Shown one piece after another: positions 1-54,425 of a stretch of DNA of 64,000 bases. The stretch spans positions 2,452,711-2,516,710 of the forward strand of contig OZ253540.1 in the NCBI GenBank assembly GCA_965262485.1, in the 5' to 3' direction. The notes under the pieces are model-generated. The model searched no databases, was not told the DNA's origin, and saw only the letters and a list, made by a program, of their open reading frames with translations. The position numbers were made by a program, and so were the translations under genes. The stretch's first letter is position 1. Every line of letters starts with the position of its first letter. The stretch comes from Dehalococcoidia bacterium (lineage in GTDB: Bacteria; Chloroflexota; Dehalococcoidia; Lucifugimonadales; UBA3495).

Positions 1-41
1 GTTCAAACCCGCCCCTGCTCTGTCACGGTGATGCCGGAAAG

Positions 42-605
42 TTAGCCGCCGGTGATAATGGCCACTACCTCTGATGCGAGTCCCTCGGCGCGTTCTCGGA
101 GGGATGGCCGATCCAGGTTCTCGATGGGATGCGCCGTGAAAATGGTGGGGTAATCTTCCGCTCCCCACATTCTGGCCATGGCGTTGGCAGTTGGGATGAA
201 CCGATCGGTGCAAATCGTGGCGGATGGGAGGCCGGCCTTTTCAACATGAATTCCGTCGTGCACACTGCACGCACTGCAACTTCCTCAATCGCCGATGGCT
301 ACCACCACCGAGTCGACGTTGGCCACCAGTTCCTGCAATTCCTGCGGGTCGGCGGGGCGTGATGCACTGGGCTTGCGGAGCCAGCGTACCTCGCGGATTT
401 CGTAACGGTTCCGCAGCACTTCAGCCAGCTCTTCCAGCAGAACGTCGGCATTGCGCTTGCTATCGTCAATCAAACCCAATCGGGTCCCGGCCAGCGAGGG
501 CAGACGCGGTGCGCCATCAAACGGCGCGATGATGGGCTCGGTGGTCGGATTGACCAGGGTATAGTTCTGAGTTGCCATGTTCACCCCTCTACAAATAAGA
601 GTCAT
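42..605 (-). CDS. UGSC-family selenoprotein (187 aa) with in-frame TGA = selenocysteine at 285-287; the ORF track splits it into 285..605 and 42..263
   Basis: The two minus-strand ORFs share one frame (564 nt). They are joined by GAT TGA GGA AGT TGC = D-U-G-S-C, the signature motif of UGSC-family (seleno)proteins. The total length fits that family. A hairpin lies 13 nt 3' of the UGA. Confidence 0.8.
257..271 (-). promoter_or_regulatory. Candidate SECIS hairpin downstream of the UGA codon
   Basis: Perfect 6-bp stem with 3-nt loop (CGUGCA-GUG-UGCACG) on the mRNA strand, starting 13 nt after the UGA. The position is right for a bacterial SECIS. Not validated against a model. Confidence 0.4.
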
Positions 606-660
606 TGGCGCTGTTATATCAGGTTAGGTGCGCGATTGCCAGAGACGGAGCGCCCCTTCG

Positions 661-835
661 CAGGGCTATCGCATATGGACCAATTAACCACCGTCATTCC
701 CGCGAAAGCGGGAATCCAGTGACCGATGCCGGTAGATTCGCCGCGAAAATCCAGCAGATTACAAGCTCTGGACTCCGGCCCCGTATCTAGTACGGGGTGA
801 CGTTCTTTCGCCGGAGTGACAGGGAAGTTTGGTAC
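661..835. repeat. Decayed solo-end copy of the ISAs1-type MITE plus a nested hairpin repeat
   Basis: The first ~56 nt (CAGGGCTATCGCATATGGACCAATTAACCACCGTCATTCCCGCGAAAGCGGGAATC) equal the reverse complement of the right end of the MITE at 50018..50181. The copy then diverges and carries a CCCCGTATCTAGTACGGGG hairpin. No second terminal repeat is present. Confidence 0.6.
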
Positions 836-846
836 GGCGGGAGATG

Positions 847-1911
847 TCAGGACACACGCACCGCTTTGGTTACGGCGGTTGAGCCCACTTTCGGCCCCCA
901 ACTGGGTATCACCGACGACATGTTGGATTCCTCGCCGCCGGCGAACACCACCAGAATGTCTTCCGGCTCCGGGATCAATGAGATCATCGTTGCTTCGTCG
1001 CCCGGTTCCACGTCGCCGCGCAGCACCTCACCGCGTTTGAGATCGGCTACGGATCGCTGGACGTTGGCGTGCAGGTACGCTCGGATGTCCGCTTTGGTCC
1101 AGTTCTGCCACAACCTGCTGTTGCCGGCGAAGGTAACGACGATCTGGCCTTGCCTGATGCCAACCGACAGGTCGCCCACCGATCCGGACGTGGACATCGA
1201 AGTGCCCAGCGACGAGGCCACGTCGGCCAGCGCGTACAGGATGGCTTCGGGCCGGCCTACGGAGCGGGTCTGGCGGGGACTTTCCCCGGCGAACACCGTA
1301 ACCGTACTGTCCGACGCATCGAAGCCCCGGTCGACATGCAGGGGCGTCCAATGGGTTTCACTCTCGGCCTCGGCGATGCAGTACGTATATTTGCCCGGAT
1401 GGCCGATCACGCTGCGGTCGAACAGGCCGGGAATCGCGGCGCAGGCATTCATCAGTATCAACCGCACCGCCCGCCCGATAGTACCGTTGGCCCGATTCCC
1501 AGGGCCGAACAGGTTGTTGCGGCTGTTGAGCCCGATTTGCTGCACTATCGGCCCGTTGACGATGCACAATACCGCTGCGCCGCCCATGCTCGATGACGGG
1601 CCAACCAGGTTGAAAACCGGATCGAGCATTGCTTCTGCGGCGGTGAGGACCACGGGGAAATACTCGGGTAAACAACCTGCCATCACCGCGTTCGCCGCCG
1701 CTTTTTCTACGGTGATGATCCGGCGGCGTTCCGGCAGTTCTCCCACCACGTCATCCGGGGCGCGCCCGGCGTAGCCAATGAATTCTGCGACCCGTTCGGC
1801 CGTGGGCGGTATCACGGGCAGCCCGTCGGTCCAGCCCAGCTCGTAGCACCGCTCTACCGCGCCGAAAATATCATCCCAACTGGCGGGGGTTGTTTCACTG
1901 AATGTCGTCAA
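847..1911 (-). CDS. Conserved-looking hypothetical protein (354 aa), family not recognised
   Basis: Long uninterrupted ORF upstream of and co-oriented with the UGSC gene. N-terminal motif GWTDGLPVIPPT. No domain I can name. Confidence 0.7.
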   Translation of the reverse strand: MTTFSETTPASWDDIFGAVERCYELGWTDGLPVIPPTAERVAEFIGYAGRAPDDVVGELPERRRIITVEKAAANAVMAGCLPEYFPVVLTAAEAMLDPVFNLVGPSSSMGGAAVLCIVNGPIVQQIGLNSRNNLFGPGNRANGTIGRAVRLILMNACAAIPGLFDRSVIGHPGKYTYCIAEAESETHWTPLHVDRGFDASDSTVTVFAGESPRQTRSVGRPEAILYALADVASSLGTSMSTSGSVGDLSVGIRQGQIVVTFAGNSRLWQNWTKADIRAYLHANVQRSVADLKRGEVLRGDVEPGDEATMISLIPEPEDILVVFAGGEESNMSSVIPSWGPKVGSTAVTKAVRVS

Positions 1912-1969
1912 TTCGGTCGCCTCGACATTTTTACATGTATGGACAGGATAAACAGGATTCAGGCGGGCT

Positions 1970-2635
1970 TTAGCATTGGCTGCTATCGCTAAAGTGGGGC
2001 AGTTCGTAATGAATCAGCGTTACGCCAAGTTCATCTGCCCGGCTGGCCAATGCCGCAGACCAGGGATAGTGCGCTACACAAAAAGGTCTGGCGGTTCTGC
2101 CGGTGAGCTCCTGTAACAGAGCGGCGCGCTGCTGGGCGTTACGAACATCCTGCTCGTTGATGGATATGGAAACCTCGACGACGGCCAGAATCTCCGGCCC
2201 GCCGCCGATGGGAACGCCTTGGGCAATGATGTCAATGACACTGCCTTGGTCAAACTGGCCTCGGGTGAGCCGGCCGTTTTGTCGCGCCGTTACCAGCAGT
2301 TCGTCAATGCGGGAGCGGTCGGCCTGGATGACGTTCGAGAGGTGTTCTACCATCACCATCTTGATGCGCCGGGCGCATTCCCGCTCGTAGGATTCGCCGC
2401 GTAGATTGCCCACCTGCCCTTGCAATGTGTTGACGCTAGCCTGCATCCCGTCCATGCTAGCCTGCATCCCGTCCATGCCAGACTGCATCGTCTCGATGCT
2501 GGCCTGCATCCCGTCTATTCGGTCCGGTATCTCGAGGAACCTTTGTGGGAGGAGGGTGTGCAGGAGGATTTCCTGCGCCTGTGGGATGGTTCGGATTTCG
2601 CCGACGAGTTGCCGCACCAGCGAACCCGGCGGCAA
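1970..2635 (-). CDS. Hypothetical protein with heptad (MDGMQAS-type) coiled coil and a possible PD-(D/E)XK-like C-terminal domain
   Basis: The track ORF is 1970..2737, but its first ~30 codons overlap the upstream 71-aa ORF. GGAGGAG lies 6 nt before TTG at 2635. There are six 7-residue repeats (IDGMQAS/IETMQSG/MDGMQAS/MDGMQAS/VNTLQGQ/VGNLRGE). The C-terminal ...IDIIA...LAVVEVSISINEQDV... resembles nuclease-fold cores. Confidence 0.55.
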   Translation of the reverse strand: MPPGSLVRQLVGEIRTIPQAQEILLHTLLPQRFLEIPDRIDGMQASIETMQSGMDGMQASMDGMQASVNTLQGQVGNLRGESYERECARRIKMVMVEHLSNVIQADRSRIDELLVTARQNGRLTRGQFDQGSVIDIIAQGVPIGGGPEILAVVEVSISINEQDVRNAQQRAALLQELTGRTARPFCVAHYPWSAALASRADELGVTLIHYELPHFSDSSQC

Positions 2636-2651
2636 TAGGCTCTCCTCCGGA

Positions 2652-2867
2652 CTAGTAACCACGGTAAATCTCCTCGTCCGTTTTGCCGGCGGCGCGCTGT
2701 CGGGCGATAAAAGCGGCGAAGTCGCCCTCATCTCCAAGAGTACGGACCACGGCCCGCTTTACCTCCGGGCCGGCCTGCTCCAGCCGTTCCAGGATGTCCA
2801 TGGCGATAGCCATTGCCTCCTGCTCGGTCACATTCAAGTCTGTCGGTTCGGTCTGTTCTGCTGCCAT
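2652..2867 (-). CDS. Small acidic hypothetical protein (71 aa)
   Basis: ATG-started ORF ending 14 nt before the SD/TTG of the next gene (operon-like). No recognisable domain. Confidence 0.5.
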   Translation of the reverse strand: MAAEQTEPTDLNVTEQEAMAIAMDILERLEQAGPEVKRAVVRTLGDEGDFAAFIARQRAAGKTDEEIYRGY

Positions 2868-3014: not shown

Positions 3015-3962
3015 TTATGCGCGCGCGTACTTGGAGAAGCTGCGGAGTTCCCGCGGCGGGTCCATGTGGCTGCCCCGAATGGTGTATGACACCTCGGACA
3101 CGTAGATTGCGCCAGTGCTGTCGACGGCGATGCCGTGGGGAGCGATAAACTCTCCGGCCCCTTCACCCTCGTCCGGCGAACCAAATACGCAGATCCGGTT
3201 TCCGTCCCGGTCGTACACGGTCACGCGGTGGCCCAGACCCGGCGCGTCATCGACGCCGCCCATGCCGTTGAGTTCGCCCACGTAGATGTTGCCGTTCCAG
3301 TAAACCATTGCGTCGGGCCGGTGGATGTTGCTCCACATGGTCAGGTAGTTGCCTTCGGTGTCGAACAGCTGGATGCGGTGGCACTCACGGTCAACGACAT
3401 AGACCCGCTCATCTTCATCAAACGCGATGTTGTGAGGACGAATGAATTGTCCGGCGTCTATCCCTGGTTCGCCCCAGGAGAATTTGTACCCTCCCTCAGC
3501 CGTGTACACGTGAATCCGCGAGTTGCCATAGCCATCGGAGACGTAGATGTCGCCGTTGCTGGGGCGGATGGCCGCCGACGTGGGCCGGTTGAACGGCTGG
3601 CCACTCCAGCGGGGGGCGGGATGGTTCTTCTCGCCGATTTCCATCAGCTTCTCGCCGGTTACGCTGAACTTCTGGATGGTATGGATTCCATCGTCAGCGA
3701 TCAGCAGGGAATCGTCGGCTGCGCTGTAGTAGAGACCGTGGGTGCGGTTGTCGCTGAAATGGCCTTCCCCAAACGTGCGCAGGAAGTTGCCATCCTTGTC
3801 AAACACCATGATCGGGTGCTCGCCACGGGTCAGGATGAATACGCGGTCTTCGCCGTCAACGGCGACGCCGGGGCACTCCAGAAGCCGCATCCCGTCGGGT
3901 ATCTTGAGCCAGTTGTCAACGAACGTGTACTGAAAATCGCCTTGGCCGTAGGTGTCAGGCAT
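3015..3962 (-). CDS. NHL-repeat beta-propeller protein (peptidyl-alpha-hydroxyglycine lyase-like)
   Basis: Repeated ...P.G(I/V)AVD..G.IYV.D..N.RI..F motifs across 315 aa. SD GGAGGAA precedes the ATG. Confidence 0.8.
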   Translation of the reverse strand: MPDTYGQGDFQYTFVDNWLKIPDGMRLLECPGVAVDGEDRVFILTRGEHPIMVFDKDGNFLRTFGEGHFSDNRTHGLYYSAADDSLLIADDGIHTIQKFSVTGEKLMEIGEKNHPAPRWSGQPFNRPTSAAIRPSNGDIYVSDGYGNSRIHVYTAEGGYKFSWGEPGIDAGQFIRPHNIAFDEDERVYVVDRECHRIQLFDTEGNYLTMWSNIHRPDAMVYWNGNIYVGELNGMGGVDDAPGLGHRVTVYDRDGNRICVFGSPDEGEGAGEFIAPHGIAVDSTGAIYVSEVSYTIRGSHMDPPRELRSFSKYARA

Positions 3963-4030
3963 AGTTTCCTCCTTGTCGGTGCTTCAGGTTATAAGTGATC
4001 GTCATGTTGGTTACTCAATACAGGATTATA

Positions 4031-4807
4031 CTACTGGGCAATGCAGCCCCCGTCGATAACCAATTCGGCTCCGGTTACGAACGATGCCTCGTCGGAGGCA
4101 AGATACAACACCCCGTAGGCCACCTCAATGGGATGGGCCCGGCGACCCAGTGGTATCAGCGCCAGCCGCTGGGCCGCCACTTCAGGGTCGTCGTAGGTTG
4201 CCGAACTCATGGGGGTAATTATGGGGCCAGGATGCACCGAGTTGGCCCGGATACCCTCGGCGGCATACTGAATGGCGGTCGCCTTGGTGAACAGACGTAC
4301 CGCTCCCTTGGAAGCATTGTAGGGGTGCGAGCGAGACCATGCTCCCGTCATGCCGGCGATTGACGAGATATTCACGATGGATCCACCGCCGGCCCGGCGC
4401 ATCGCGGGTATCGCCGTTTTGGTACCCAGGAAAACGCCCTTGGAGTTGACGTCCATTACACGATCCCAGTCGGCTTCGCTGGTGTCTTCCAGCGCGATGT
4501 TCCCGGCTCCTCCGCCGACCGAGATGCTGATGCCAGCGTTGTTCACCAGCGCATCCAGCCGTCCGTATCGCGCTTCCGCCAGCGCCACAATCGCCTGCCA
4601 GTCAGACTCGCTGGTAACGTCCAGGTGGGCGTAGGCGCAGTCGTGGCCGGCGGCCCGTTGTTCCGCTTCCACCTGTCGGCCCAGGTCGTCCAGGATGTCG
4701 CCGAATACCACCTTTGCACCTTCCCGGGCAAACAGGCCCACCTCTTCTGCGCCCATACCTCGAGCGCCCCCGCTTATCAAAACTACCTTTCCATCAACTC
4801 GGCCCAT
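4031..4807 (-). CDS. SDR-family oxidoreductase (3-alpha/20-beta-hydroxysteroid dehydrogenase-like)
   Basis: N-terminal GKVVLISGGARGMG Rossmann motif, NNAG, and the S...YxxxK (YNASK) catalytic motif. Confidence 0.9.
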   Translation of the reverse strand: MGRVDGKVVLISGGARGMGAEEVGLFAREGAKVVFGDILDDLGRQVEAEQRAAGHDCAYAHLDVTSESDWQAIVALAEARYGRLDALVNNAGISISVGGGAGNIALEDTSEADWDRVMDVNSKGVFLGTKTAIPAMRRAGGGSIVNISSIAGMTGAWSRSHPYNASKGAVRLFTKATAIQYAAEGIRANSVHPGPIITPMSSATYDDPEVAAQRLALIPLGRRAHPIEVAYGVLYLASDEASFVTGAELVIDGGCIAQ

Positions 4808-4835
4808 GGTGTTTCGCTCCTATTCTGCCAGCAAT

Positions 4836-5189
4836 TCAGTTTGGCGGCAGGTTTTCGCCGATAATGGTTTGCAATTGCTGAACCAATGGCGGCAGGTGTT
4901 CCTGGATGATACGCCACAACTCATCGAAATCGACCGTATCGTAGTCGTGGATCAGAACGTTTCGCAGATCGGTGGTGTCCTGCCAGGGAACCTCCGGGTA
5001 GCGGGAACGAAATTCTGGCGGCACGCGGCGAGCAGCCTCACCCAAAACTTCCATCAGCCTGGTGAGGGCGAGTTCAAACATCCGGTCCAAGTCGAGATCC
5101 GCGCGCGACCGGTCTTGCGCCAACTCCATGGCTTCTTTGCCGTGATCTCGCATTTGCTGGACAGCGACCATGGGGTCACGACGCGACAT
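4836..5189 (-). CDS. hepT: HepT-like (DUF86) RNase toxin
   Basis: 117 aa with the Rx4HxY motif (RNVLIHDY). Overlaps the upstream nucleotidyltransferase gene by 14 nt. Confidence 0.85.
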   Translation of the reverse strand: MSRRDPMVAVQQMRDHGKEAMELAQDRSRADLDLDRMFELALTRLMEVLGEAARRVPPEFRSRYPEVPWQDTTDLRNVLIHDYDTVDFDELWRIIQEHLPPLVQQLQTIIGENLPPN

Positions 5190-5484
5190 ATATCTCCTCC
5201 GCTTCGTCCAACACTTCCTGTCGGAAGTAGGGACTCAGGGACGCCGCGGTGTGCATATCCACTTCGCGGCCTAGCAACGCGGTCAATTCTCGCCGCATCT
5301 GGAAGAACACGAACCCTGCCGCATAGCCCGGTTCAAACTCCACCAGCACATCAATGTCGCTTTGCGGCGTGAAATCGTCGCGAATGACGGAGCCGAACAA
5401 GGCCAGCCTTCTGACATAGTTCCGGAGGCAGAATTCGGCTATGGCGTCACCGGGAATTTCGATGCGGGCGGTCATCAGGCTCAC
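5176..5484 (-). CDS. mntA: MntA-like minimal nucleotidyltransferase antitoxin
   Basis: 102 aa with LFGS..R......SD(I)D(V)LV, the Pol-beta-type NTase motif. Directly upstream of hepT. Confidence 0.85.
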   Translation of the reverse strand: MSLMTARIEIPGDAIAEFCLRNYVRRLALFGSVIRDDFTPQSDIDVLVEFEPGYAAGFVFFQMRRELTALLGREVDMHTAASLSPYFRQEVLDEAEEIYVAS

Positions 5485-6356: not shown

Positions 6357-7952
6357 TCAGGAGATGGCGGACGATCCTTCACCGGAGAGGTAGTCGGCAG
6401 TCCGCAGCGCCAGCGCCTGAATGGTCGTGGTCGGATTTATGCAGGCTCCCGTGGTGAAAATGCTCCCGTCGATGATGAACAGGTTGGGCACATCGTGGGC
6501 CCGACCCCACCGGTCGACCACCGAGGTATCGGGGTTGGCTCCCATCCGCGCAGTTCCCAGCAGATGCCAGCCAGCGTTGCGCCGCAACTTTGACGCGATG
6601 ACGCGCTTGGCGCCGGCGGCCTCCAGCGCCTCGGTAGCGCGGGCGATGCCGTGGTCAAGAATGGCCCACGTATTATCGCTCACCGTGTAGTCGATCTTGG
6701 GAGCGGGGATGCCGTGGCTGTCGGTCAATTGAGGGTCCAGCGTAACCCGATTGTGTTGCTCGGGCAGGTCTTCGGCCATAACCACGATGCCCATCTGGCG
6801 GTGGAAGCGTTCCGCGAAATCGCGATGGTGCGCGTCGCCCCACGCCACGGTCTCGCCAACCAGTCCGCCCAGGGCGATTTGCAGGGGAGCGCCGCCGACG
6901 TTGGAAACCTGCAAATCGTACCCCCGCACGAACCCGCGCCGCACGTCGGTTTCGTAGAATTCCTGGCTCAGCATCGACGAACCCCGGGGGCCCTCGTCGG
7001 ATCCCATATCCTCGTCAAACAGCCCCAGAACATATCCACACGGATGGTGCATCAGGTTGCGGCCCACCTGTCCGCTACTGTTGGCCAGACCATCGGGGAA
7101 CAGCGCGCTGCGCGAGTTGAGCAGCAACCGCGACGTGCCGATGCCGTTGCACGCCAGCGCCACCACGTTGGCGTATTGCGCCTGCAGGTCACCGTTGCGG
7201 TCGTAGTACGAAGCGCCGGTGGCTCGCCCGGATGCGTCCACCAGAATCTCGCGGACACGCGCGTGGGTGATCAGGCGGGCGCCCTGTTTCAGGGCTTGCG
7301 GCCAGAAGATTATGTCGCTTCCCGAAGGGGAACGCAGGTATTCGCCGACGTCGGGTTGCCGACCATCCCACGCAGCGGAGTGCACGGCGTTGTCCGATGA
7401 CCACCAGTGCCACCCCAACTTGTTGAAAGCCTGCCCCAGCAGTTCACCACCCCGTCCGATGGGGAGGGGAGGCGTGGGTCGCACCGGTTTCGGCGGATAC
7501 GCCGGGTCGCCCTGCAAACCGCTCACGCCGTGCATCCGGTCATTCAGATCGTAATAGGGTTCCAGCTCAAAGTAGTCCATCGGCCAGTCATCGGCCACGC
7601 CGTCCAGCGACTGCAGGCGAAAGTCGGAAGGATGGAAGCGGGGGAAGTGAGAACCCCAGTGAATCGTGCTGCCACCCACCGCGTTGTACATATACGGAGC
7701 GATGGGAGTGTCATCCTCGTTGACCGGGTAATCTTCGGGCAGCCCGCGGAAGTTGGGATTTGGATGGAAGTCAGTCTGCCAATGCAACTGAGCCTGGGGG
7801 TCGCTCACCGGGAACGCGTTCTGTGGAACCCAACCGCCCTGCTCCAGGCAAACGACCTTTACCCCCGCCTGCGTAAGGCTCCAGGTGAACGCCGCGCCGG
7901 ACGCGCCGGCCCCGATTACCAAAACGTCTGCTACTGCCTGCTTGCTGCCCAT
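6357..7952 (-). CDS. GMC-family FAD-dependent oxidoreductase
   Basis: N-terminal DVLVIGAGASGA FAD motif, 531 aa, and a C-terminal GMC signature region (GT.RMG......VVD..G..H...NL...D.S.F). Confidence 0.9.
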   Translation of the reverse strand: MGSKQAVADVLVIGAGASGAAFTWSLTQAGVKVVCLEQGGWVPQNAFPVSDPQAQLHWQTDFHPNPNFRGLPEDYPVNEDDTPIAPYMYNAVGGSTIHWGSHFPRFHPSDFRLQSLDGVADDWPMDYFELEPYYDLNDRMHGVSGLQGDPAYPPKPVRPTPPLPIGRGGELLGQAFNKLGWHWWSSDNAVHSAAWDGRQPDVGEYLRSPSGSDIIFWPQALKQGARLITHARVREILVDASGRATGASYYDRNGDLQAQYANVVALACNGIGTSRLLLNSRSALFPDGLANSSGQVGRNLMHHPCGYVLGLFDEDMGSDEGPRGSSMLSQEFYETDVRRGFVRGYDLQVSNVGGAPLQIALGGLVGETVAWGDAHHRDFAERFHRQMGIVVMAEDLPEQHNRVTLDPQLTDSHGIPAPKIDYTVSDNTWAILDHGIARATEALEAAGAKRVIASKLRRNAGWHLLGTARMGANPDTSVVDRWGRAHDVPNLFIIDGSIFTTGACINPTTTIQALALRTADYLSGEGSSAIS

Positions 7953-8021: not shown

Positions 8022-8196
8022 GAGCCTGTTGACAATTAGCAAACCAGCCCGTCGCTCCTGCGAAAGAACGTCACCCCGTACTTGATACGGGGCAGGAGTC
8101 CAGAGAGGGTCAGATGAAAGAATCAGAACCGTGATTAACGACTTCGGCCACTGGATTCCCGCTTTCGCGGGAATGACGGTATTTGTCAACACACCG
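8022..8196. mobile_element. TA-flanked MITE (175 bp) carrying the GTCATTCCCGCGAAAGCGGGAATCC hairpin module
   Basis: Ends are GAGCCTGTTGACAATT... and ...AAATACCGTC/TTGTCAACACACCG (imperfect TIR). TA dinucleotides sit at 8020-8021 and 8197-8198. Related copies lie at 26226 and 49418. Confidence 0.6.
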
Positions 8197-18159: not shown

Positions 18160-18334
18160 CAGGGCAAACGCATTCTAACTTTAGGGGGCCTCATATACCG
18201 TCATTCCCGCGAAAGCGGGAATCCATACAGCTTGCTTCCAGACAGTTGACGTACAAGCAAACGACCTGGATTCCCGCGAAAGCGGGAATGACGGACGCCT
18301 GCAAAGCCGATTAAATTAGAATGCGTTTGCCCTG
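18160..18334. mobile_element. ISAs1-type MITE (175 bp) with 19-bp perfect TIR and 10-bp TSD
   Basis: The TIR is CAGGGCAAACGCATTCTAA / TTAGAATGCGTTTGCCCTG. The direct repeat TCCTCGACCC lies at 18150-18159 and 18335-18344. The TIR starts like the ISAs1 IR CAGGGCAATCGCGTT. Confidence 0.85.
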
Positions 18335-26225: not shown

Positions 26226-26376
26226 GGCTGTGTTGACATTTACAGTCATTCCGGCGAAAGCGGGAATCCAGAGAGTCGGGGAGTGGCTAATTTCGGGATA
26301 GTTATGCTTATTTGGAGCACTGGATGCCGGCGAAAGCCGGAATGACGAAATGAAATTTCAAAATGTCAACACAGCC
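26226..26376. mobile_element. TA-flanked MITE (151 bp) inside the restriction endonuclease gene
   Basis: 17-bp perfect TIR GGCTGTGTTGACATTTT.. / ..AAAATGTCAACACAGCC, flanked by TA (26224-25 and 26377-78). Internal CATTCCGGCGAAAGC(G/C)GGAATG hairpin modules. Confidence 0.8.
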
Positions 26377-39598: not shown

Positions 39599-39872
39599 CT
39601 AAACAGGTTAACGCTGGAAATCAGATTTCGGATTACCCGGTGGCGGAACAATCTACCACGGATACCGCTTAGGATGCCGGCAATTAGGATAACGGTAACA
39701 GTTCAGAGTTGTGGCGCCATCGCAACTCCGAACCCGTCGTACCGGCGAAAGCCGGTATCCAGGAACCTTTGCCCCGTTCACGTTGACCAATGCGTTGCCT
39801 TTCTGGATTCCTGCTTCCGCAGGAATGACGGTATTTGTCAGCACACCCTAACAGCTCATGCGTACCCACTTT

Positions 39873-49418: not shown

Positions 49419-49558
49419 AGCCTGTCGCCAATTAGCAAACCAGCCCGTCATTCCCGCGAAAGCGGGAATCCAGAGTACCCTGAATGTGAACGATGTCTGC
49501 TTTCCAAAGCGCCTGGATTCCCGCGAAAGCGGGAATGACGGTATTTGTCAACAGAGCC
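49418..49558. mobile_element. TA-flanked MITE (141 bp) abutting the trxB 3' end
   Basis: Ends are GAGCCTGTCGCCAATT... and ...AAATACC/TTGTCAACAGAGCC. TA lies at 49416-17 and 49559-60. Two CATTCCCGCGAAAGCGGGAATG modules. Confidence 0.7.
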
Positions 49559-50017: not shown

Positions 50018-50181
50018 CAGGGCTATCGCATATGAAATTACAGTCACGTCACTCCGGCGAAAGCCGGAGTGACGTGACTGTAATTTGCTGGATTTTCGGA
50101 GGGAAGCTACCAGCAACGGTCACTAGATTCCCGCTTTCGCGGGAATGACGGTGGTTAATTGGTCCATATGCGATAGCCCTG
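50018..50181. mobile_element. ISAs1-type MITE (164 bp) with 10-bp TSD
   Basis: The TIR is CAGGGCTATCGCATATG / CATATGCGATAGCCCTG. The direct repeat GCTCAATGTT lies at 50008-50017 and 50182-50191. Confidence 0.85.
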
Positions 50182-52772: not shown

Positions 52773-54209
52773 TTGGTGATGCCCGCCAACTCTGACGAGA
52801 TAGTTTTCCTGTCTGCCGAGGCCACTGCGGCGGGTATCCGCGCCGGTGAGTTTACGGCTACCGACGCAGTGAACGCATACCTGCGCCGGATCGACGCAAT
52901 CGACGCAGATATCAAGTCCTACATCACCGTGTGCCGGGAAGAGGCGTTGGGGGCGGCATCGGATGCGGACGACGCGCTGCGCCGTGGCGACGACCGGGTT
53001 GCCGGGGCGTTGTTCGGGGTGCCGGTGGCCGTCAAAGACCAGTTCAATACGGCTGGCATACTGACGAGCAACGGCTCCAGAGCCTACGCCGACAACGTCC
53101 CGGAAACGGATGCTACCGTGGTGGCCCGGCTGAAAGAAGCCGGGGCAATTCTGATGGGCAAGCTGAACCTGAGCGAGCTGGCGATGGGCGGCACGGCCGA
53201 TCCTCCTTACGGGACGCCGCAGAATCCGTGGCGGGCCGGACATACGCCCGGCGAATCGAGCAGCGGGTCCGGGGCGGCGCTGGCGGCGCATCTCTGCGCG
53301 GCATCGGTGGGCGAGGACACGGGGGGCAGCGGTCGGGGGCCGGCATCCTATTGCAATGGCGTTGGGCTGCGTCCGACTTTCACCCGCATCAGCCGGTACG
53401 GGGTTACACCCATGTGCTGGTTCATGGACGCCGCCGCCCCGATGACCAAGACGGTTGAGGATTGTGCCCTGGTGCTGGGAGCGGTGGCCGGTTACGACCC
53501 GCTGGATCCGACCACCAGCCGCCGGCCGGTGCCTGATTACTACGGGATGCTGGATGGCGTTATCACGGGGATGCGCGTTGGCCGGCTGACCGAGCTGTGC
53601 AGCTCGCCGGATATGCACGCCGACGTGCGGTCGGCGATTGACCAGGCGTTGGAAACGTTGGCCGGGTTGGGGGCGGAAGTAGTCGATGTATCGGTGCCGC
53701 TGACCGAGATGGCCGGAGCGATTTTTGTGGGCATTGCCGATACTGAGGGCGCCGGCGCGCGGGATGGATTGATGCTTCGCGCGCCGGAACAACTGGACCG
53801 GGCTTCACGCACCCGATTGCAGAGCGCTTCGCTGGTTCCGGCGAAAGTGCAGAACCGGGCGATGAAAGCCAGGGTTCTGCTGAGGCGGCAATTTGAGGAT
53901 GCGTTCCGACGGGTTGACGTGCTGGTGTCGCCGACGGCCCCATATCCGGCGCCGCGGCACGATGCGCTGACGGCCAGGTTCGAGAGCGCCGAAGATGTGC
54001 GACAGCGTTTCTTTTTCCGCCGGTCGTACACGGGTTGTTATCCACTGGCAGCGATGCCGGCAATTTCCATACCGGGCGGATTCACCGAAGACGGGTTGCC
54101 GATTGGCCTGCAGATTGGCGCCGCGCCCTTCGCGGAGGGAACCATCCTGCGGGCATCGTACGCCTATCAGCAGGCAACGGACTGGCACACGCGCCGAGCG
54201 CCCGTGTAG
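52773..54209 (+). CDS. Amidase-signature family amidase
   Basis: ...GVPVAVKD........T..GS.......A.VV.RL..AGAI..GK.N..E.A.G......G...NPW....PGESSSGSGAA.A. The start could be TTG 52773, GTG 52776 or ATG 52779. Confidence 0.88.
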   Translation: MVMPANSDEIVFLSAEATAAGIRAGEFTATDAVNAYLRRIDAIDADIKSYITVCREEALGAASDADDALRRGDDRVAGALFGVPVAVKDQFNTAGILTSNGSRAYADNVPETDATVVARLKEAGAILMGKLNLSELAMGGTADPPYGTPQNPWRAGHTPGESSSGSGAALAAHLCAASVGEDTGGSGRGPASYCNGVGLRPTFTRISRYGVTPMCWFMDAAAPMTKTVEDCALVLGAVAGYDPLDPTTSRRPVPDYYGMLDGVITGMRVGRLTELCSSPDMHADVRSAIDQALETLAGLGAEVVDVSVPLTEMAGAIFVGIADTEGAGARDGLMLRAPEQLDRASRTRLQSASLVPAKVQNRAMKARVLLRRQFEDAFRRVDVLVSPTAPYPAPRHDALTARFESAEDVRQRFFFRRSYTGCYPLAAMPAISIPGGFTEDGLPIGLQIGAAPFAEGTILRASYAYQQATDWHTRRAPV

Positions 54210-54210
54210 C

Positions 54211-54425
54211 CAGGGCTATCGCATATGGACGGTTTTAACCACTGCCATTCCCGCGTTAACCACCGTCATTCCCGCGAAAGCGGGAATCCAGGCGCTTTGG
54301 AAAGCAGACATCGTTCACATTGAGGGTACTCCGGATTCCCGCTTTCGCGGGAATGACGAGTTGGGGTTCGGGAATGACGAGCTGGGGTCAGTGAAATCGC
54401 CTTATATCTCAAATGTCAACACGGC
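54211..54425. repeat. Chimeric MITE debris (ISAs1-type MITE end + hairpin modules + TA-MITE end)
   Basis: Starts 1 nt after the amidase stop with CAGGGCTATCGCATATGGAC. It contains three CATTCCCGC... modules and ends ...AAATGTCAACACGGCCC. Confidence 0.65.

Follow-up and report, generated by a model that had tools for sequence, protein, structure and literature searches.

The UGSC-containing protein is an accepted predicted selenoprotein family, the function of which is described as unknown (PMC2398784, PMC1976440, PMC13188914). Earlier, it had been reported from Hyphomonas and from an Olavius symbiont (PMC1976440). It was among the most abundant families in the GOS marine metagenomes, with 255 Sec versus 21 Cys forms and a UxxC motif, and its fold was called a "likely Trx-like fold" (PMC2398784). 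In a 2026 review, it is listed under NF041046 (PMC13188914). Since the family has been known since 2007-2008 (Zhang & Gladyshev 2007/2008) and is covered by Pfam and NCBIfam models, the novelty of a further member is low.

In bacteria, the signal that accompanies a selenocysteine UGA is a stem-loop in the coding sequence just 3' of it, as in the SECIS of the E. coli fdhF type. According to the bSECISearch consensus, such an element has an apical loop of 3 to 9 nt, a stem of 4 to 16 bp, a distance of 16 to 37 nt between UGA and loop, and a minimum free energy (MFE) of -7.5 kcal/mol or lower; furthermore, the loop has a G within its first two positions, with G or U as the usual next base (PMC13188914, Fig. 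2). Here we describe a UGSC-family gene of a Dehalococcoidia/SAR202 bacterium that is split by an in-frame TGA, together with a gene that is its regular neighbor.

A UGSC-family gene split by an in-frame TGA

In the window (the whole 64-kb stretch of DNA that was analyzed), the minus-strand ORFs 285..605 and 42..263 share a common frame and are parted by TGA 287..285 and seven sense codons (GSCSACS), as described in the original prediction. Reading through the TGA gives MATQNYTLVNPTT...VVAIGD-U-GSCSACSVHDGIHVEK...AIITGG, followed by TAA 44..42. The features of the locus are listed in Table 1.

Table 1. Positions of the gene pair and of the sequence elements at the locus
Feature	Position	Strand	Remarks
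Predicted UGSC-family selenoprotein gene	42..578	-	ATG 578..576, Sec-UGA 287..285, TAA 44..42; 178 residues including Sec98
Shine-Dalgarno-like GAGGGG	585..591	-	~6 nt upstream of ATG 578; read from sequence
In-frame UGA, predicted selenocysteine, the U of U-G-S-C	285..287	-	TGA in 81/81; aligned residue Cys in 66/69
GTG inside the hairpin, false start of a 73-aa C-terminal fragment for gene callers	261..263	-	From the ORF list
Predicted bacterial SECIS core, 6-bp stem CGUGCA/UGCACG, apical loop GUG	257..271	-	Within all four bSECIS criteria
Putative full SECIS with lower stem	248..284	-	nt +1..+8 with +30..+37; 78% of cells paired
Conserved partner gene, orphan 354-aa protein	847..1911	-	Directly upstream of the UGSC gene; one invariant Cys (C80, NAxMAGCxPxY)
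Spacer between partner and UGSC genes, with a dispersed palindromic repeat	579..846, core about 684-719	-	Copies elsewhere
5' half of an intrinsic-terminator-like hairpin after the UGSC gene	1..16	-	Cut by the window edge; window reads AGGGGCGGGTTTGAAC

The original prediction had given the product 187 aa, counted from 605, and had considered this the right size for the family. The size class was correct: counted from ATG 578, the product has 177 aa plus Sec, and most relatives have 171 to 201 aa. The start was not, since the homologues begin with MATQNY or MTTQQY, equivalent to ATG 578; these N termini and the preceding GAGGGG motif place the start at 578 and not at 605.

For profile scans of the read-through protein, U was replaced by C. 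The protein scored 149.6 bits with the NCBIfam model NF041046, "UGSC family (seleno)protein" (curated cut-off 125), and 185.5 bits with Pfam PF24696 (cut-off 25), the latter over residues 9 to 176. Both scores are above the curated cut-offs, confirming the proposed family membership.

A word-indexed search with the whole protein returned 411 relatives, the best 120 of which were nearly all fragments of 97 to 100 aa ending exactly with ...GD. When the C-terminal half was used, fragments of 67 to 92 aa starting just after the UGA were found, and many database fragments begin at V/M-HDG, the equivalent of GTG 261..263. Thus, gene callers everywhere stop at the same codon. In line with the expectation that automated annotation would yield two fragments, the public calls are pieces of 97 aa and 73 aa, or the first piece only.

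The two closest full-length database proteins, P0001 and P0003, have R-S at the U-G position, and the Cys/Sec column therefore had to be examined more rigorously. When the last 80 residues were used as the query of an exhaustive HMMER search, 348 representatives were obtained, 69 of which span the Sec site. The residue aligned with U was Cys in 66 of these 69 full-length relatives (CGSC in 53, CGAC in 6, others in 7); the remaining three have D, G, and S once each. We conclude that U is located on a conserved Cys/Sec column and is, as predicted, the name-giving residue of the U-G-S-C motif. P0001 and P0003, considered as a case against this column, are outweighed by the 66 Cys residues. They are metagenome proteins, 54% and 51% identical to the window protein and each known from a single contig; their Arg-Ser could correspond to CGA in place of UGA, either with loss of the redox residue or by error.

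Other TGA-interrupted ORFs with a UxxC- or CxxU-like context were also considered in the window. There are 13 more such candidates, and all look like off-frame noise.

Selection on the UGA, the downstream frame, and the stem-loop

A scan of species-representative genomes yielded 80 loci, all from Dehalococcoidia, SAR202, or Chloroflexota metagenome-assembled genomes, with a protein identity of 75 to 99%. Including the window, the codon at the Sec site is TGA in 81 of 81 genes. The UGA is thus conserved in orthologues and paired with Cys in homologues, the pattern by which a selenoprotein gene is tested. Codon-position entropy in these genes was 0.36/0.17/1.12 upstream and 0.29/0.22/1.11 downstream of the UGA; the third-position values are nearly identical (1.116 and 1.111), and positions 1 and 2 have low values upstream as well as downstream. 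In pairwise counts, synonymous changes outnumbered nonsynonymous ones equally before and after the UGA. The equal third-position variability shows that the downstream 80 codons are translated in this frame.

The perfect 6-bp hairpin that had been predicted at 257-271, starting 13 nt 3' of the UGA, is present as described, with the loop beginning at a distance of 19 nt from the UGA. The 3-nt loop GUG, the stem of six Watson-Crick pairs, the 19-nt spacing, and the MFE (-10.2 kcal/mol over the 45 nt that follow the UGA, -7.6 kcal/mol for the 20-nt core) all fall within the published bacterial consensus; the original prediction had noted that the hairpin is located where bacterial SECIS elements sit. 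Taken alone, the hairpin is weak evidence, because the MFE of the 66 nt after the UGA was no better than that of shuffled sequences (z = +0.9); such a hairpin follows 2.8% of the TGAs in the window. When 180..340 was scanned against Rfam at a permissive threshold, no SECIS model was matched, and the scan returned a meaningless lncRNA hit.

The hairpin is formed by codons +5 to +10 (GCG UGC AGU GUG CAC GAC), in which a single synonymous variant was detected in total in the 81 distinct sequences. Their third-position entropy is 0.016, compared to about 1.11 elsewhere. Ala, Ser, and Val have four to six codons, yet they are frozen in the hairpin, while almost every other degenerate codon varies. 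Such freezing of synonymous sites is the hallmark of an RNA structure superimposed on a coding sequence.

Seven distinct, more distant genes of the Sec type (loci L083, L085, L086, L088, L089, L092, and L093) have the hairpin at an identical offset. In these distant members, the apical loop is GUG, GUA, or GUC (G-U-N), and the stem is extended to 7 to 10 bp in L089, L092, and L093, reaching 10 bp in L089 and L092 if one terminal G-U pair is included. In L085, a double change from U-A to G-U keeps the pair and alters two amino acids (C to G and H to L). All six upper-stem pairs are formed in 40 of 40 distinct sequences (100%), and because this stem hardly varies, L085 is the only sequence that provides classical covariation. 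The three Cys-type members L094, L097, and L099 lack the hairpin; in L099, nearly the same peptide (SACSLH) is encoded by codons that break the stem. The structure is thus under selection beyond coding: its upper stem is paired, its synonymous sites are frozen, and it is missing from three Cys forms. A putative lower stem right after the UGA was kept as a tentative part of the element, because 78% of its cells are paired and its covariation was not clearly above that of shuffled or slid controls. The TGA conservation, the freezing of synonymous sites, and the Cys-column data are far beyond chance.

Based on these data and on the established SelB mechanism, UGA 287..285 would be decoded as selenocysteine: the stem-loop 13 nt downstream would act as a bacterial SECIS and recruit SelB-GTP-Sec-tRNA(Sec) to the ribosome, leading to the incorporation of selenium. 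Like the fdhF-type SECIS, the window hairpin directly follows the UGA within the coding sequence, and it shares with bacterial SECIS elements the small G-U loop, the UGA-loop distance of 19 nt, and the 6-bp upper stem. It differs in that no Rfam model matches it and in that SelB binding is a prediction. Similarity to the fdhF SECIS at the level of primary sequence is not expected.

Readings without a selenoprotein gene have to account for the same observations. If a nonsense mutation of TGC or TGT to TGA had inactivated a Cys-type CGSC gene, or if the TGA were a sequencing error, the existence of Cys-type relatives with TGC at the Sec codon and the ending of the database gene calls at this codon would be understandable. 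Against this stand the TGA in 81 of 81 independent genomes at about 75 to 100% protein identity and the purifying selection, which is equally strong before and after the UGA and excludes a pseudogene and a sequencing error as well as two independent genes. In a dead gene, neither the 80 codons nor the hairpin would have stayed intact, and we consider that this explanation has practically no chance of being correct. A slightly larger, still very small probability is given to two separate small proteins, one of 97 aa ending at the UGA and one of 73 aa re-initiated at GTG 263. Public data contain gene calls for both fragments, and GTG 263 is a possible start codon; this codon is, however, within the hairpin. 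Moreover, the GSCSACS codons between UGA and GTG are protein-invariant in close relatives, conserved family-wide, and synonymously variable, and they include the second Cys of the motif. Cys-type relatives consist of one uninterrupted chain of about 180 aa, and the structural model suggests a single compact domain that has the motif at its center.

The UGA could also be read through without selenium, either by near-cognate suppression (Trp or Cys) or by local read-through, with the hairpin serving as a stimulator or pausing element instead of a SelB-binding SECIS. The missing Rfam SECIS hit would fit this explanation, as would the lack of any Sec machinery gene in the window or the 80 loci. 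In the window, no tRNA-Sec was detected, and the only tRNA is a tRNA-Ala (Rfam at the gathering threshold included); tblastn with E. coli SelA, SelB, and SelD gave nothing in the window and the 80 loci except a generic GTPase hit in L046. The genes for the Sec machinery need not be linked to a selenoprotein gene, and their absence from these regions is therefore uninformative. The same UGSC gene is terminated by TGA in 29, by TAG in 27, and by TAA in 25 of the 81 genes; TGA is thus a genuine stop here, and code reassignment is excluded. Furthermore, the position, the G-U loop sequence, and the size of the hairpin match the bSECIS consensus, and the UGA is aligned with the redox Cys of a UxxC motif, which is how Sec/Cys pairs are typically recognized (PMC9312934). 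Selenoprotein users are known among the Chloroflexi, the phylum to which the window belongs (PMC1794560), and SelA and SelB have been reported together from many bins of sponge symbionts that belong to various phyla (PMC5649159). Read-through without selenium is thus improbable, with only a small chance of being correct.

We conclude that 42..578 on the minus strand is very probably one intact UGSC-family selenoprotein gene, the UGA of which is decoded as selenocysteine. The original prediction was thus right in what it observed and in how it interpreted it. The gene is a misannotated further member of a well-known predicted selenoprotein family, and the selenoprotein call as such is routine. 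Its relatives are present in databases as hundreds of clusters of "hypothetical" fragments of 97 aa or 73 aa, the merging of which gives the correct selenoprotein. The merged gene would mark abundant, uncultured SAR202-type Dehalococcoidia as users of selenocysteine. The part worth following up is the family-wide module of UGSC and partner genes, along with a faint GrdB/PrdB-like signal.

The conserved partner gene and its surroundings

The partner gene adjoins the UGSC gene in 79 of the 80 close loci and, in either gene order, in all nine informative distant loci (9/9). In Cys-type members, the stop and start codons of the two genes overlap. The partner belongs to a family with more than 7600 homologues; among the 120 listed, there is no precomputed Pfam domain or functional name. 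With the window partner protein, no Pfam or NCBIfam match was obtained (up to E = 10), and no PDB sequence or profile match was found. A Foldseek search with its model (pLDDT 65, poor) gave nothing usable for a fold assignment. Across diverse members, C80 is the sole invariant Cys, and it is one of several invariant motifs.

In L089 and its near-identical contig L090, the partner is called as a protein of 522 aa that runs over the end of the locus and for which a peroxiredoxin-like (AhpC-TSA) Pfam hit is recorded. Of its in-locus part, residues 51 to 388 align with the window partner. L088 contains, at 193..2202, a tandem of a UGSC(Sec) gene, a gene for a 349-aa partner, and a second UGSC(Sec) gene, showing that at least one lineage has a duplicated module. 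The partner of L100 is broken up into three ORFs, probably due to a long-read frameshift. The split partner gene of L091 (85..1122) was considered as a second selenoprotein gene and was rejected: the interruption is a single TAG in place of an otherwise invariant Asn (FGPG-N-RAN), which is likely an error or the mark of a pseudogene and not Sec.

The two genes are separated by 268 nt in the window versus about 31 to 60 nt in many relatives. The spacer contains a palindromic repeat, the hairpin ggattcccgc-tttc-gcgggaat plus flanks, which together span up to about 120 to 145 nt. Copies are present in the window at about 8037-8180, 18197-18294, 26242-26274, 39803-39832, 49438-49542, 50018-50181, and 54196-54358, and the repeat occurs at unrelated positions in other Dehalococcoidia loci (L012, L020, L024, L028, L069, and others). 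It looks like a REP/MITE-type element that inflates the spacer in the window.

Downstream of the UGSC gene, the terminator-like hairpin that is cut by the window edge is complete in the close relative L048, where it is located at 6563-6586 and reads AGGGGCGGG-TTCAAA-CCCGCCCCT, followed by a T-run. A common transcript of the partner and UGSC genes is probable, and it would end at this terminator hairpin.

Upstream of the pair, a gene for an NHL-repeat beta-propeller (3015..3962, minus strand) and a short-chain dehydrogenase gene (4031..4807, minus strand) are found in about 72 of the 80 loci; in the distant L094, short-chain dehydrogenases are likewise encoded, there after the pair. These genes may represent a wider operon context. 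Between the partner and the NHL-repeat gene, the window has a 255-aa ORF (1970..2737, minus strand) with a short internal repeat of the DGMQAS type. It is present in only 11 of the 80 related loci, has no Pfam hit, and is possibly a mobile or accessory gene. Further upstream, 4836..5484 (minus strand) encodes a HepT-like RNase and a nucleotidyltransferase (MNT), a type VII toxin-antitoxin module found in only about 20 of the 80 related loci. In the close relatives L100 to L104, at about 3800-5400 and on the opposite strand downstream of the UGSC gene, there are convergent genes for Trm112p-like, CopD-like, and AhpC/TSA-Redoxin thiol-disulfide oxidoreductase proteins.

Comparison with known selenoproteins and redox systems

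The window gene shows no essential difference from the described UGSC family (NF041046, PF24696; Zhang & Gladyshev 2007/2008). It agrees with it in profile score, in its single domain of about 178 aa, in the position of the motif on the Cys/Sec column, in the hairpin directly after the UGA that resembles a SECIS, and in its marine bacterial origin; the window copy comes from Dehalococcoidia/SAR202. A non-exhaustive literature search retrieved no paper placing the UGSC family in this group.

For the fold, we used the AF2 model of P0269, a Cys-type relative that is 40% identical to the window protein. The model (pLDDT 92.4) has a beta-alpha domain of five units with CGSC at a strand-to-helix junction. 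Its top Foldseek hits in the PDB were generic flavodoxin-like domains with a TM score of about 0.5, and no thioredoxin-fold protein was among the top 50. A search of the UGSC family profile against PDB sequences gave nothing significant. Judged by this homologue, with its beta-alpha repeat, flavodoxin-like hits, and lack of thioredoxin hits, the label "Trx-like fold" is not supported. The fold of the UGSC protein looks flavodoxin-like, with U98-G-S-C101 at the predicted strand-to-helix junction, and the modeled geometry of the motif would be that of a redox-active selenenylsulfide or selenol-thiol center, as in a redox CxxC.

Some UGSC members have a C-terminal NifU-like CxxC domain, and one is fused to a thioredoxin-reductase-like flavoprotein domain. 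These domain fusions and the conserved partner point to thiol/selenol redox chemistry. With the CxxC/UxxC oxidoreductases of the Trx, Grx, and Prx type, the UGSC protein has in common a UxxC at the N terminus of a helix that follows a beta-strand, and its fusions and neighbors include TrxR-like and peroxiredoxin-like domains. Unlike these proteins, the UGSC protein is predicted to fold into a five-stranded beta-alpha repeat, as is typical of flavodoxin-like domains.

A second likeness emerged from the NCBIfam matches of UGSC members beyond the UGSC model itself. Except for a single geranylgeranyl-reductase hit, they were almost only to selenoprotein-B subunits of glycine, betaine, sarcosine, and D-proline reductases; the GrdB model TIGR01917 was hit by 11 of 43 members. 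In the window protein, residues 82 to 154 match positions 330 to 397 of 431 in the GrdB/PrdB-type model, which is the Sec-bearing region, with 21.6 bits at a cut-off of 602. With scores so far below the GrdB/PrdB cut-offs, the similarity is a lead and not evidence of membership.

Together with the partner linkage, this faint similarity in the Sec region to B subunits of Stickland-type reductases turns "function unknown" into a testable two-protein hypothesis. We see about an even chance that the UGSC protein passes reducing equivalents to the partner of about 350 aa or is its catalytic selenol subunit. A more far-reaching and rather doubtful possibility is that the two proteins constitute an undescribed two-component selenium-dependent reductase that is widespread in SAR202 and other marine bacteria. 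The UGSC protein would then be a stand-alone relative of the Sec domain of GrdB/PrdB, and the partner would be a substrate-binding or catalytic subunit. If true, this would provide a function for one of the most abundant selenoprotein families of the ocean and for more than 7600 "hypothetical" proteins.

The comparison with GrdB, GrdH, GrdF, and PrdB (TIGR01917, TIGR01918, and TIGR04483) has two sides. The UGSC protein is less than half as long as the family architecture of about 430 aa and falls outside these families, its partner has no similarity to the pyruvoyl subunits PrdA and GrdE, and no grd or prd genes were identified among the neighboring genes examined. On the other side, the UGSC protein has in common with the B subunits the UxxC Sec motif and a faint, recurrent similarity around it. 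Moreover, proteins of the GrdB/PrdB type work with a second, separately encoded protein, and the UGSC gene likewise has its partner gene as a neighbor.
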